This document shows positions 58,447-62,268 of a stretch of 64,000 bases of DNA, piece after piece (positions within the stretch are counted from its first letter, which is position 1; each line of letters opens with the position of its first letter). Made by a program: the position numbers and the translations under genes. Under the pieces are notes generated by a model. It was given only the letters and a program-made list of their open reading frames with translations. It searched no databases and was not told the origin of the DNA. Location of the stretch: the NCBI GenBank assembly GCA_002897715.1, contig BDUA01000009.1, positions 9,540 through 73,539 on the forward strand, given 5' to 3'. This DNA is from a bacterium BMS3Abin01. Its GTDB lineage: Bacteria > Actinomycetota > Thermoleophilia > BMS3ABIN01.

Positions 58447-59391
58447 ATGGGCCGGAACAATACCAAAGGATCAAACCGGGAGGTGAAGGAATTGGATTTC
58501 AAGAAAATCGCAGCAGTTATAGCTATCGCGTCGGCGCTAACACTGGTTGTCGGATTCAGTGCGTTATATGCCTCTTCGGCGCCGCCGGATAACCCGCACT
58601 ACAGCTACACGGAATGTGTATCCTGCCATTCAGATCAGATCGACTACCATAGTGATGCCGCTTCACACGCTTATTCCGAATGCATCAGCTGTCATGGCGA
58701 CAGGACTGACGAGGTCTCGCAATACGATGCCGCGCACAGTCAGTATTTCGATGGTCCCCACAAGCTGCACTTGACCTCAGACTTACTGTCTTTCAACTGC
58801 ACTGAGTGCCATGTCTCCGTGGATATCCGCGAACAGGACGGTGCATCGGTCAGGCGGCAGGTATCGATGGTTTGTGCTGACTGCCACAGCCCCTTCCCCA
58901 GCAAGATGGACTCAAGCTGGGCGTCTGAGGACTGCACCGGTTGTCATAGTGACTGGGAGACAAAACACGCGGGAACACCCTACCTGAACAACAGCAATAT
59001 CAATCCGGGTGATTGTTACGGTTGCCACGGCGGCAGAGCATTCTACTTCTCCGGTGCCGCGGCGCTGACGCTTTCACGAGGCGCAGTCTACTGGGCCAGC
59101 ATGGCTGACTACGAGGCCGCGCTCCTGTCCGTCGATTTCAGCATCACTAACGCGGGTCCGGGTACGGCCAACGATGCAGCCATCACTTATGTGAGCGCCG
59201 GCAACGGCGTCAGTGCCGTCACTGGTCTGCCCCTGGCCCTGGGCTCCATCCCCCAGGATAGCTCATCCGACTTCACGCTGGTGTACAGCGTACCCACAGG
59301 CGCCGGTTCATTCATGACGACCCTGTACGCCCAGGCTATCAATGACGACGGGGAGACCCAGTACTGGCCGTCTCCGCCGCCGGGCAGTTGA
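58447..59391 (+). CDS. Membrane-anchored hexaheme c-type cytochrome with C-terminal beta-sandwich-like domain
   Basis: Six CxxCH motifs (CVSCH, CISCH, CTECH, CADCH, CTGCH, CYGCH) follow one N-terminal TM helix. An alternative TTG start at 58492 lies 6 nt after GGGAGGTG. Confidence 0.85.
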   Translation: MGRNNTKGSNREVKELDFKKIAAVIAIASALTLVVGFSALYASSAPPDNPHYSYTECVSCHSDQIDYHSDAASHAYSECISCHGDRTDEVSQYDAAHSQYFDGPHKLHLTSDLLSFNCTECHVSVDIREQDGASVRRQVSMVCADCHSPFPSKMDSSWASEDCTGCHSDWETKHAGTPYLNNSNINPGDCYGCHGGRAFYFSGAAALTLSRGAVYWASMADYEAALLSVDFSITNAGPGTANDAAITYVSAGNGVSAVTGLPLALGSIPQDSSSDFTLVYSVPTGAGSFMTTLYAQAINDDGETQYWPSPPPGS

Positions 59392-59446
59392 TGACATTGA
59401 CACAGTCGACGGAAGCACGGACGAATCAGCAATCAGGGGGGATGAC

Positions 59447-59608
59447 ATGAACAGGAACAAGCAAAAAAGCACAAGCGGCAACGGGGTGAATGCGCACCTG
59501 GAATATCAGGCGCCCAGGCTGACTCGCTGCGGCAACGTCAGGGAAGTCACCTTCGAGTGTTCCAACTGGCAGTGCAGCGTCACCGTACCGCCGCCGCCAG
59601 AGTCGTAA
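59447..59608 (+). CDS. 53-aa small ORF with lasso-RiPP-type leader motif (YxxPxLx3Gx5Tx) and Cys/Pro-rich C-terminus
   Basis: MNRNKQKSTSGNGVNAHLEYQAPRLTRCGNVREVTFECSNWQCSVTVPPPPES. A G-rich SD precedes the ATG. It is co-oriented between the cytochrome and the oxidoreductase genes. Coding status is unproven. Confidence 0.45.
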   Translation: MNRNKQKSTSGNGVNAHLEYQAPRLTRCGNVREVTFECSNWQCSVTVPPPPES

Positions 59609-59673: not shown

Positions 59674-62268
59674 ATGACAAAAGAGAAAGGTAAAGCCGGG
59701 GTTCTCGGCATCAATCCGAGCATTTCCCGCCGCTCCTTCATCAAGTGGGGCGGAACGGTAAGCGGCGCGGCCGTTGCCAGTTCCCTGTTACCGGGAGGCC
59801 TGTTAAAACAGGTCTTCGATACCGAGCAGGCCAAAGCAGCAGGCGGCACCTGGACTTATACCGCCTGCAACATGTGTGGCGGCCAGAGCGGTATCAAGGT
59901 GAATGTGGAAGGCGGCACCGTCAAGAAGATCGAGCCCAGCGGATTCAATCCCGCCGGCGTCACCAACATCTGCACCGACAACGCCAACGACCCCTCGGAT
60001 TTCCTCCATACGGACTGGGGCGGCTGCATGTGTCCCAAGGGCAACGCGGGGGTCAAGTCGCTCTATGACCCCGACAGGCTGATGACCCCCATGAAGCGCC
60101 GTGCGACTTCACCGCGAGGCGCGGGAGCCATCTGGGACCCCATCAGTTGGGATGACGCACTCAACGAGGTCAAGAGCAGGCTGGAGGAGATCGCGTCAGC
60201 AACGGGCGGCTATACCGGAGCCCATCAGGTCCTGTGGTTTGGTGAGGATCACTCCTTCACCCATCCTCAGAAGGACTTCTGCAAGATGTACGGCACGCCC
60301 AACTACATGAATCACTCCAACCTCTGCGACACGGGCCGCAAGCGGATCTTCAGCGTGCCCATGGGTGACGAACGTCCCATTCCCGACTACGCGCATGCCA
60401 AGTACGCGCTGGTCTTCGGCTGGAACTTCCTGGCGGCAACCAAGTGGTCGCACCTGCCCCGTATCGCACGGCAGTTCTTCGACAACGGTGGCCGCATGGT
60501 TCTCGTCGATCCCGTCTTCAGCAACACGGCGGCGGCGGCAAGGCGCAACGGTGGTGAGTGGGTACCCATCAAGCCGGGTACGGACGGCGCCCTCGCATTA
60601 GCCATGGCCTACGTGATCATCAACGAGAGCAGGTATGACGCTGCTTTCGTGGGCAGTAATGTGATCGGCTTCTCCGAGTACAGCGACTACGTGAACGGGC
60701 TCGGCAGCGACAGCACCGCCAAGACGCCCGCATGGGCGGAAGCCAAGACCGGCATACCTGCCGCCGATATCGAGCGCCTGGCGCGCGAGGTATCCGACCC
60801 TGGTAACCATCCGGCCATCATCGACTGCTGGTCCGGACCGGGGCAGCATACCAACGCTGTCCAGGGCGGCCGCGCCATCTCGGCACTTATGGCGCTAACC
60901 GGCCAGATTGGTGGTGCCGGCAACATGGTGTTCGCTCACAAGAAAGGCAACAAGCACCGCACTATCGTCAAGTCCCTGTCCTCGCTCTCGAGGCCACGGG
61001 TCGACGGAAAGGGCTACCCTGTTTCACAAAACGGATACCCCTTGGCGCACGGTTCGGGCATCTACGTGCGGGCGCGGGACGTCATGTATGATTCCGACCT
61101 GTCCGCGGCGGCATACTGGGCCAAGTACCCTTACCTGGGCGCCTCGGAAGCCGAGGCGGATGAAAACCGGCCCAAGGCGGCGGTATTCGTCTTCCAGAAC
61201 TGGGTGATGTCTGTGCCCAACACTCAGAAGAACATCGATGCCCTCAACAAGCTGGACTTCATCGTGACCATAGACACACACCTGAGCGAGACCGCCCAGA
61301 TGTCCGACATCATCCTGCCGGGCTCCAACTACCTGGAGCGCTACGACTTCACCGGCAACTGGGTGACTTTCTACAGCACCAGCCTGCGGCAACCGGTGGT
61401 CAACTCCTGGATCGGCAACCCCTACGGTTATGAGGCAGGGACGATCATGGAACTGGGACGCAGGATGGGTCTCAGCGGCGACCCGGGCAGCACACCGCCC
61501 GGTGACTTCAATATGACCTACGAACAGTACCTGGGGCAGGAACTACTGCTTCAATCCACCATCAAGGCCTCCCTCTACCCCTCGGGGGACCCCAGCAACC
61601 TGGCGGATTGTGACGCAGCCCTCAATGCCATGAAGGCGCTGCCCGGTGCCGTGTGGCCTTCGGCGGCCGAGCTTCAGGCTAATGTCGCCACCTGGGGCAC
61701 CCAGTACGGCAACATCAGCAAGCTCAAACGCAAGAGTGACAGCAGACAGATAATAGTACTCAATTCCTACTCGGGCACGGACGACGGTTCCGGTAACGCC
61801 GACGAGATAATCGGCTACCACTCCCTGGAGACCGCCGGTTACGACGCTCTGCCGGTATACGCCGACCCGGTGGACACGCCAGCCAACACGCCTGGGTATC
61901 CGCTCCACCTGGTCAACTGGAAGCAGTCGGAGCATACCCATTCGCGGACGCACAACAACATCTGGCTGATGGAGATGAAGGGAACCAACCCGGTCTACAT
62001 CAACACGGCCACGGCTTCCGGGCTGGGTATAGTCGACGGCGATGCCATCACGGTGGAATCACCATACGCAACCGTCAACGGCACTGCTTTCGTTACCGAA
62101 GGCATCCAGCCCGATACTGTCGGTATGCTGCATGGCTTCGGACACACGGCGCTGGGCACCATCGCTCAGGGTAAGGGCACATCTGACGGAGCGCTTCCTC
62201 CCGGCAAGGCGGAAGCGATATCCGGCCAGGCCTGCCACAAGGAAGTCGCCGTGAAAGTCTACAAGTGA
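59674..62268 (+). CDS. Tat-exported molybdopterin (bis-PGD) oxidoreductase catalytic subunit, paralog of 45344-47869; substrate unknown
   Basis: Twin-arginine signal SRRSFIKWGG and N-terminal cluster region CNMCGGQS...NIC...GGCMCPKG. Also HSNLCDTG and PIKPGTDGALALAM blocks. 864 aa. Confidence 0.9.
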   Translation: MTKEKGKAGVLGINPSISRRSFIKWGGTVSGAAVASSLLPGGLLKQVFDTEQAKAAGGTWTYTACNMCGGQSGIKVNVEGGTVKKIEPSGFNPAGVTNICTDNANDPSDFLHTDWGGCMCPKGNAGVKSLYDPDRLMTPMKRRATSPRGAGAIWDPISWDDALNEVKSRLEEIASATGGYTGAHQVLWFGEDHSFTHPQKDFCKMYGTPNYMNHSNLCDTGRKRIFSVPMGDERPIPDYAHAKYALVFGWNFLAATKWSHLPRIARQFFDNGGRMVLVDPVFSNTAAAARRNGGEWVPIKPGTDGALALAMAYVIINESRYDAAFVGSNVIGFSEYSDYVNGLGSDSTAKTPAWAEAKTGIPAADIERLAREVSDPGNHPAIIDCWSGPGQHTNAVQGGRAISALMALTGQIGGAGNMVFAHKKGNKHRTIVKSLSSLSRPRVDGKGYPVSQNGYPLAHGSGIYVRARDVMYDSDLSAAAYWAKYPYLGASEAEADENRPKAAVFVFQNWVMSVPNTQKNIDALNKLDFIVTIDTHLSETAQMSDIILPGSNYLERYDFTGNWVTFYSTSLRQPVVNSWIGNPYGYEAGTIMELGRRMGLSGDPGSTPPGDFNMTYEQYLGQELLLQSTIKASLYPSGDPSNLADCDAALNAMKALPGAVWPSAAELQANVATWGTQYGNISKLKRKSDSRQIIVLNSYSGTDDGSGNADEIIGYHSLETAGYDALPVYADPVDTPANTPGYPLHLVNWKQSEHTHSRTHNNIWLMEMKGTNPVYINTATASGLGIVDGDAITVESPYATVNGTAFVTEGIQPDTVGMLHGFGHTALGTIAQGKGTSDGALPPGKAEAISGQACHKEVAVKVYK

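Follow-up and report, generated by a model that had tools for sequence, protein, structure and literature searches.

A 64,000-nucleotide stretch of contig BDUA01000009.1 from the Thermoleophilia bacterium BMS3Abin01 (assembly GCA_002897715.1; hereafter the window) carries, at positions 59447–59608 of its plus strand, a 53-codon peptide gene with the product MNRNKQKSTSGNGVNAHLEYQAPRLTRCGNVREVTFECSNWQCSVTVPPPPES. This gene belongs to a multi-copy family that is specific to one bacterial family, and most copies stand directly behind a gene whose product ends in a shared C-terminal domain (CTD). We favor, with slightly less than even confidence, the reading that the peptide is a cyclase-free, lasso-like precursor processed in trans, and the maturation enzymes are probably those encoded elsewhere in the genome. 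Its product cannot be a classical lasso peptide; the core has no acceptor Asp or Glu at positions 7–9, and no cyclase was found.

The sequence shows a Shine-Dalgarno-like element (AGGGGGGA, 59435–59442, plus strand) 5 nt ahead of the ATG. The open reading frame (ORF) is annotated by gene callers in the public assemblies containing it, and the window's own sequence is present in marine metagenomes of PRJDB5792. Across 29 copies, compared over 30 codons starting at the Tyr codon, mean synonymous divergence (pS) was 0.58 and mean nonsynonymous divergence (pN) was 0.15 (pN/pS = 0.26), and third codon positions in the peptide family are about three times as variable as positions 1 and 2. The family is under purifying selection, and the 53-codon ORF is confirmed as a real gene. 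A chance ORF is ruled out by this coding and selection signature, and a repeat element without coding function by the coding signature. In the window, the peptide gene follows a gene for a multihaem cytochrome c. Full-length orthologues of this cytochrome were found in one genome of genus g7 (G020) and two of genus g4 (G005 and G014), each followed by a family peptide (...AYAKPELAMHDNLKDITFECQAWQCSVVVPPPPEH in G020, ...EYAPPAVTQLGNIAEVTRECSNWQCSVTVPPAPGS in G005, and ...DYAPPAVARLGNIAEVTRECSNWQCSVVVPPAPPS in G014). The original prediction had proposed conservation of the frame in syntenic loci as a test; the frame is kept after the cytochrome in these three other genomes, which therefore favors a gene.

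The possibility that the peptide is an orphan precursor is refuted, since it is one of 7–8 paralogues in its own genome, and the family runs to hundreds. Our six-frame search set comprised 61 genomes, namely the own genome (G000, its contigs designated by C-numbers), 23 of the same bacterial family, and 37 of eight other families of the class. The own genome is 86% complete, and for this reason absences from it are provisional. Its 7–8 copies (nine matches in the six-frame search) include, besides the window gene, paralogues recovered by tblastn and ORF extraction at C11:40299–40433, C47:3962–4096, C49:30075–30305, C49:73511–73723, C42:18–113 and C41:22797–22931, and a divergent one at C55:15109–15258. 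A typical member has 38–50 residues, for example MATSKSDHREPYAKPELVKKENLKEITFECPNWQCSVTVPPPPA. The contigs bearing C42:18–113 and C49:73511–73723 end within ~100–200 nt of the family copy. Repeated modules of peptide and C-terminal domain probably break the assembly, and copy numbers in draft genomes are therefore lower bounds. With this in mind, each of the 23 other genomes of the bacterial family gave 4–12 or more listed matches, and the 37 genomes of the eight other Thermoleophilia families gave no match better than E = 0.01. The hosts are uncultured Thermoleophilia from subsurface and marine sediment.

A pattern scan of 185,579 species genomes returned 63 loci, in metagenome bins from subsurface or marine-sediment samples that are labelled Thermoleophilia, Gaiellales, Actinomycetes, Actinomycetota or unclassified; the sole exception is a short contig in a 'Dehalococcoidia' bin, from a sample shared with a Thermoleophilia bin. 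The family was revealed only through six-frame genome searches and an exhaustive profile search: a word-indexed protein search with the 53-residue peptide matched nothing but itself, and the profile search of 1.84 billion representative proteins gave 46 matches, the convincing ones all being small proteins. Distant relatives keep the leader block and a W-x-C-S motif and differ in their tails, which are often rich in His, Asp and Gly, such as GHGGHGHHGD and DDDDDHDHGG in two that keep the leader block and C-S (G000:C55:15109–15258 and L120:9001–9168). The copy at L120:9001–9168 adjoins a multicopper oxidase gene, and the C55 copy lies near a protein with a twin-arginine translocation (Tat) signal. 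These relatives may be metal-binding variants; no maturase was found near them in four contexts examined. Searches with the peptide gave no useful Pfam match and no subunit family in NCBIfam or Pfam. Neither the peptide family nor the C-terminal domain nor their arrangement was found described in Pfam, NCBIfam or the literature searched, and literature searches on lasso peptides in Thermoleophilia and on the HprK-related kinase yielded nothing specific.

The peptide can be divided into three parts, all on the plus strand. Residues 1–19 (59447–59503) form a variable, basic N-terminal stretch that is poorly conserved (alignments A1 and A2) and has a low AlphaFold2 predicted local distance difference test (pLDDT) score. 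This stretch is followed by a leader-like block, Y20–F36 (YQAPRLTRCGNVREVTF, 59504–59554), and a core-like block, E37–S53 (ECSNWQCSVTVPPPPES, 59555–59605). A leader motif of the type read in lasso pathways by the recognition element (RRE) of peptides made by ribosomes and modified after translation (RiPPs) had been noted in the ORF, and the sequence is as described: YxxPxLx3Gx5Tx is present, with Y20, P23, L25, G29 and T35. The NCBIfam model NF033521 (lasso_leader_L3), which has a cut-off of 19 bits, scores 18.6 bits on residues 20–35 (E = 0.0013), and the window ORF was the top match to this model when all six frames of the entire 1.5-Mb genome were searched (E = 0.005). Lasso-leader hits at E up to 1 were obtained for 4/22 aligned family members with NF033521 and for 9/22 with NF033528. 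Counted from the F36/E37 boundary, Y20, P23, L25 and T35 occupy −17, −14, −12 and −2, which we take to be the positions that define lasso leaders. Across the family, Y20, P23, T35 and F36 are invariant and L25 nearly so, and two alignments add E37, C38, W41, Q42, C43, S44, V45, V47 and P48 to the invariant or near-invariant residues. The position of the lasso Gly(−8) holds Asp or Glu in 70/88 copies and Gly in 8/88, the window copy among them; because of this substitution in most copies, only the window copy nearly passes NF033521, and hits to the typical paralogue are weak or absent. The family invariants are consistent with the published RRE-binding motif [Y/W]xxPx[L/V/I/F/A] (PMC13381572).

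In the core-like block are a C38/C43 pair, an invariant W41-Q42-C43-S44 (alignment A2), and a Pro-rich tail with a terminal Ser. The core consensus, ECPxWQCSV(T/V)VPPPP, is nearly fixed in the family. With Glu1, Cys7, Ser8 and Val9, the window core (ECSNWQCSV...) has no Asp or Glu at positions 7–9, and the consensus ECPxWQCSV likewise combines Glu1 with the lack of either residue there. These features, together with the failure to find a cyclase, bear out the earlier judgement that a classical lasso macrolactam is unlikely. Position 39 is Ser in the window copy and Pro in most paralogues, and the C-terminal residue is Ser in the window copy and its genus g4 orthologues, and Ala or Pro in most paralogues. 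AlphaFold2 models the peptide alone as coil with no secondary structure (predicted template modeling score, pTM, 0.21), so the isolated peptide is predicted to be disordered, as expected of a precursor or a strand-donating peptide. The peptide has no signal sequence or membrane segment.

The upstream cytochrome gene (58447–59391, plus strand; Pfam Cytochrom_c3_2 and Cytochrome_C7) encodes a membrane-anchored protein that carries the shared domain at its C-terminus (59056–59388, plus strand). This CTD has ~105 residues and is modelled as a beta-sandwich (AlphaFold2 mean pLDDT 95.2). It matches no Pfam family, and a Foldseek search of its model against the PDB returned generic beta-sandwiches only, all with E above 0.001, and no specific neighbor. 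Many copies have a Cys near each end of the domain. In the own genome, the CTD forms the C-terminus of 18 predicted secreted proteins, beta-propeller and large surface proteins among them (further examples are at C11:39922–40248, C47:4165–4464 and C18:18289–18612). The domain occurs 11–40 times per genome in 23/23 genomes of the bacterial family and in 0/37 outside it. Approximately 61 of the 83 peptide genes with enough upstream sequence, some duplicate loci included, directly follow a CTD gene, and the median distance from the CTD-gene stop codon to the peptide Tyr codon is 80 nt. The rest are mostly of a stand-alone subtype, Y-E/Q/N-K-P-V-L, which in several relatives lies beside haem-biosynthesis genes (hemC-like by eye). 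We also observed a conserved locus that combines a ParA/MinD-like ATPase, a lipoprotein of ~180 residues, a second type of HPr-kinase-like gene, and two or three pairs of CTD gene and peptide gene (relatives L033, L034, L039, L042 and L047; G000:C47:893–5679).

Downstream of the peptide gene lies a gene for a PhsA/PsrA-like, Tat-exported molybdopterin oxidoreductase (Mo-enzyme; 59674–62268, plus strand), followed by genes for an FeS subunit, a TorD-like chaperone and TatA. The intergenic gaps are short, 55 nt from cytochrome to peptide and 65 nt from peptide to Mo-enzyme, and no plus-strand promoter or terminator was found between the three genes. A search for a terminator or structured RNA after the peptide ORF found a small hairpin, whose folding is not better than that of shuffled sequence (z = −0.5). 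The LytTR regulator, earlier noted as typical of peptide-signal circuits, is not linked to the peptide by any observation.

The arrangement at this locus had suggested a small accessory subunit of the respiratory complex. Co-transcription between the cytochrome and the catalytic subunit would suit a small subunit dedicated to a cytochrome/Mo-oxidoreductase complex, or its redox or metal cofactor peptide, as would the Cys and Trp of the peptide, the preservation of this position in four genomes of three genera (in G005 the next gene after the peptide gene is that of the Mo-enzyme, matching the window order), and the distant relatives with His/Asp-rich tails by a multicopper oxidase. Against this, a Mo-enzyme neighbor is limited to four orthologous loci of ~88 peptide genes, no known subunit family was matched, and most paralogues follow non-respiratory genes: copies with a near-identical core lie behind genes for beta-propeller and further non-redox proteins, or by themselves next to hemC-like genes. 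We consider the subunit explanation very unlikely and reject a dedicated respiratory subunit on the strength of the paralogue contexts. What the copies have in common is the CTD of the upstream protein. Since the coupling to this tail domain holds for most copies, the link is to the CTD and not to the Mo-enzyme, which is context rather than a general partner of the family.

Coupling to the CTD also lends itself to an explanation that needs no maturation. The peptide might be an unprocessed small protein that acts as a cytoplasmic or post-export partner of the CTD proteins, such as an escort, an assembly factor or an anchor, in which case its likeness to a lasso leader would be a by-product of a strand-forming binding motif. 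The close coupling of ~61/83 copies to CTD genes (median 80 nt) argues for such a partner, as do the near-fixation of the entire peptide, above all its C-terminal half, and the restriction of CTD, peptide and arrangement to the same bacterial family. Distant relatives also adjoin other exported-enzyme genes, such as that of the multicopper oxidase, with no maturase nearby. Yet the presumed partners are exported and the peptide has neither a signal sequence nor a membrane segment; disorder is predicted for it; and a peptide gene accompanies only about one CTD gene in three (8 versus 18 in the own genome). The lasso-leader spacing of the four invariant residues would moreover have to be a coincidence. 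Lastly, covariation between peptides and CTDs is weak (Mantel r = 0.17; 8 of 2000 permutations as high), and the peptides are far more conserved than their partner CTDs (mean distance 0.24 versus 0.60). Such conservation with weak covariation is better explained by an interaction or enzymes shared by all than by co-evolution within each pair. We therefore regard an unprocessed partner as a possible but less than likely explanation.

The B1 RRE (PqqD) and the transglutaminase-like B2 leader protease of lasso pathways are both present in the genome, on contig C14. The operon there encodes, in order, an HPr-kinase-like protein (362 aa), PqqD (105 aa), a B2 protease (147 aa), a DUF2079 membrane protein and a methyltransferase, and the same order is repeated in a relative of another genus (locus L050). 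On NF033537, whose cut-off is 33 bits, the B2 protein reaches 44.4 bits, and a Cys motif (GKCLLRS) and a His motif (GHSWL) can both be read in its sequence. PqqD gives 65 bits with PF05402; the NCBIfam model that fits it best is NF033536, a lasso B1 model, at 60 bits against a cut-off of 80. The kinase has relatives in the HprK-related kinases A and B. We noted that the operon is flanked by two glycosyltransferase genes and a radical S-adenosylmethionine (SAM)/SPASM gene (C14:5311–13172). This layout hints that the peptide machinery is connected with a glycan pathway. It also suits the unprocessed-partner explanation, in which the PqqD/B2 operon would serve, for example, a glycan pathway: the operon holds the DUF2079 protein and the methyltransferase beside the adjoining glycosyltransferases and no precursor. 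Indeed, no precursor-like ORF was found beside B2 in the own genome or in 12 relative loci. Among small genes with a Y..P.L...T. pattern in the own genome, members of the peptide family are the only plausible candidates.

B2 occurs once each in 20/23 genomes of the bacterial family (the three without a detected B2 are 69, 78 and 92% complete) and in 3/37 outside it. The own genome has three HprK-related genes, on C14, C47 and C18, which match TIGR04352, TIGR04355 and TIGR04249, all below the cut-offs. The second kinase type (C47:893–1936) lies between pairs of CTD gene and peptide gene in at least five relative loci of three other genera, and in the own genome it adjoins one such pair. A short PqqD-like gene (C11:36096–36359) is found 1.4 kb upstream of another pair. 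Genome-wide searches, which did not include a maturase search of the window itself, placed no hit to PqqD, B2 or a cyclase type on the contig of the window. Thus, the original statement that no maturase is nearby stands for this contig, but does not extend to the genome, which does hold the PqqD/B2/HPr-kinase-like operon on C14.

No lasso cyclase was found among the three PF00733 hits in the 86% complete genome. Two full-length Asn-synthase homologues, on C16, were considered as cyclases and rejected; they pass the AsnB model TIGR01536 (399 and 535 bits), score only 271 and 225 bits on NF033535 against a cut-off of 525, fail NF033561 too, and sit among radical SAM genes. By eye, this region (C16:16285–24311) groups the two Asn-synthase-type amidotransferases with two B12-binding-type and one SPASM-type radical SAM enzymes. 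In one of the amidotransferases, Ser replaces the catalytic Cys at the N-terminus; the NCBIfam model that fits this protein best, below the cut-off, is the XrtA/PEP-CTERM amidotransferase. A canonical lasso precursor, with its cyclase in the unassembled 14% of the genome, would draw on the leader motif, on the presence of B1 and B2 and on the incompleteness of the genome. However, the core begins with Glu1 and has Cys, Ser and Val at positions 7–9, leaving no acceptor carboxylate; the Asn-synthase homologues of the genome are true AsnB types; and in the 12 relative loci, judged without a cyclase-model search of the relatives, no cyclase-like gene was seen beside B2. This explanation is extremely unlikely.

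The choice that is left lies between an unprocessed small partner protein and a precursor that is trans-processed by a cyclase-free pathway. We propose that the discrete PqqD-type RRE encoded on C14 binds the Y-x-x-P-x-L stretch of the peptide and hands it to the B2 cysteine protease of the neighboring gene, which would cut after T35-F36. One or more of the HPr-kinase-like enzymes might then phosphorylate a core Ser; candidate sites are the invariant S44, S39, and the C-terminal Ser that is retained by this locus type. Since there is no cyclase and no acceptor Asp or Glu at core positions 7–9, no macrolactam would form, and the product would be a linear peptide of ~16–17 residues with a Pro-rich tail and, probably, a C38–C43 disulfide bridge. 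Because most copies are co-transcribed directly behind genes for CTD proteins, the peptide would be expected to work with these proteins, whether as a ligand, a processing partner or an anchoring partner; a free antibiotic or a Mo-enzyme subunit is unlikely.

We favor trans-processing because the four residues that RRE and B2 would recognize are invariant at the right spacing, because the same lineage retains a lasso-type B1/B2 pair that has no precursor of its own, and because HPr-kinase-like genes are conserved beside peptide genes. The predicted disorder of the isolated peptide is a further reason, as are the published precedents of linear polyphosphorylated peptides (LPPs) and lasso kinases (PMC13381572; PMC8498205). 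Several observations nevertheless weigh against it. No peptide copy adjoins the PqqD/B2 operon in any genome examined; the pairing of enzymes and substrate therefore rests on co-distribution in a single clade, which amounts to one evolutionary event. Moreover, G021, at 92% completeness, has peptides yet no detected B2. The typical paralogue falls below the NCBIfam lasso thresholds, with Asp or Glu replacing the lasso Gly(−8). The putative core is more conserved than the leader, opposite to most multi-copy families of RiPP precursors. Finally, no exporter was identified, and no search for one was made.

Could the peptides instead be LPPs in the strict sense of Popov et al. (2026)? In that case, a signal-peptidase-I-like enzyme would cut after F-E-C (compare F-E-T), S39 would be phosphorylated, and the processing would fall to the S24/S26-type peptidase, PqqD and kinase-like genes of contig C18. 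There, on the minus strand (C18:14193–17517), we observed a separate RiPP-like cluster of a ScmC/HprK-like protein, PqqD, a radical SAM/SPASM enzyme and an S24/S26-type peptidase, with its own 51-residue precursor (MIMKKEYQAPSLKSVKINEPLAYACN...). By eye, the family consensus Y-x-K-P-x-L-V-K-H-D/E-N-L resembles the YxxPxVLxHQxI of LPPs, and the window's F-E-C-S-N-W resembles their F-E-T-(A-Q)-S-N-W (PMC13381572). The adjacency of an S24/S26-like peptidase to PqqD and a kinase-like gene on C18 is also in keeping with an LPP. By contrast, the C18 cluster already has a precursor and a radical SAM enzyme of its own, F-E follows the Tyr at a distance 3 residues greater than in LPPs, position 39 is Pro rather than Ser in most paralogues, and no NTP_transf_5 (PF14907) gene was found in the 86% complete genome. 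The similarity was, in addition, judged by eye and with no LPP model. A strict LPP is, in our view, improbable.

A bolder proposal, which we regard as doubtful, is that peptide, CTD, and trans-encoded PqqD, B2 and kinase make up one undescribed system, in which a peptide processed under the guidance of its lasso-type leader would be produced in step with each secreted protein and be bound or attached to the CTD of that protein. If true, such a system would decorate, sort or anchor surface proteins of Thermoleophilia in a new way and give a cyclase-free lasso-like pathway a first physiological role. Recognition of cyclase-free lasso relatives is recent, and their role is obscure (PMC13381572). 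The family offers a clear handle on this role, namely a near-invariant, multi-copy peptide coupled to secreted proteins with a new domain, with the genes for recognition, protease and kinase elsewhere. Should the link between peptide and CTD be true, it would point to a structural or sorting role for such peptides rather than an antibiotic one, and would explain PqqD/B2/kinase operons without a precursor gene in glycan loci. Genome mining based on clusters would miss all these dispersed precursors.

The closest described relatives of the peptide family are the LPPs of Bacillota, which are cyclase-free and use a discrete RRE, a precursor of the type YxxPxVLxHQxIxFETxxS, and an HprK-like kinase that adds phosphates to a Ser close to the site of cleavage (Popov et al., Nat Commun 2026, PMC13381572). 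Both systems are cyclase-free lasso relatives with a discrete PqqD-type RRE, an HprK-like kinase and a YxxP-type N-terminal block. When the LPP motif is set by eye against the family's YxKPxLVKH(D/E)NLKDITFEC, the residues Y, P, L/V, V/L, H and L/I align, and F-E comes 3 residues later in the family. Both are also found near glycan genes, and the biological role of LPPs is likewise obscure (PMC13381572). The two differ in their protease, which in LPPs is a signal peptidase I (SpI)/SipW-type serine peptidase, while the candidate here is a lasso B2 cysteine protease; the only S24/S26-like peptidase beside PqqD here belongs to the separate radical SAM cluster on C18. No NTP transferase (PF14907) was found here, and an MsbA-like exporter, as in LPPs, was not searched for. 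Furthermore, the precursors here number 4–12 or more per genome, lie dispersed at a distance from the enzymes, are coupled to genes for CTD proteins, and have a nearly invariant core, whereas the core of LPPs is variable. The phylum also differs, Actinomycetota (Thermoleophilia) here versus Bacillota.

With kinase-class lasso peptides of the paeninodin type, the family shares a B1 RRE, a B2 protease, an HPr-kinase homologue, a Y/W-x-x-P leader and a Thr at −2. In lasso precursors, HPr-kinase homologues phosphorylate the Ser at the C-terminus (PMC8498205), the residue in which the window copy and its g4 orthologues end. Unlike these pathways, however, the system here has no cyclase, no ring-acceptor Asp or Glu, and a precursor outside the cluster, and most paralogues end in Ala or Pro. 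Prochlorosins offer a parallel in organization: many precursor genes dispersed in the genome are served by one enzyme, with hypervariable cores behind Nif11-type leaders. The family resembles them in having many paralogous precursor genes away from a single-copy maturation locus, and differs in its almost fixed core and lasso-type leader. SynChlorMet/GeoRSP cassettes (ScmC kinase-like protein, PqqD and radical SAM/SPASM enzyme) similarly combine a kinase-like protein and PqqD with small Cys-containing peptides. Such a cassette exists on C18, with its own adjacent precursor and radical SAM enzyme, neither of which the peptide family has nearby. Collectively, B2 without a cyclase, dispersed precursors with a near-fixed core, and tight coupling to CTD-protein genes set this family apart from both lasso peptides and LPPs.

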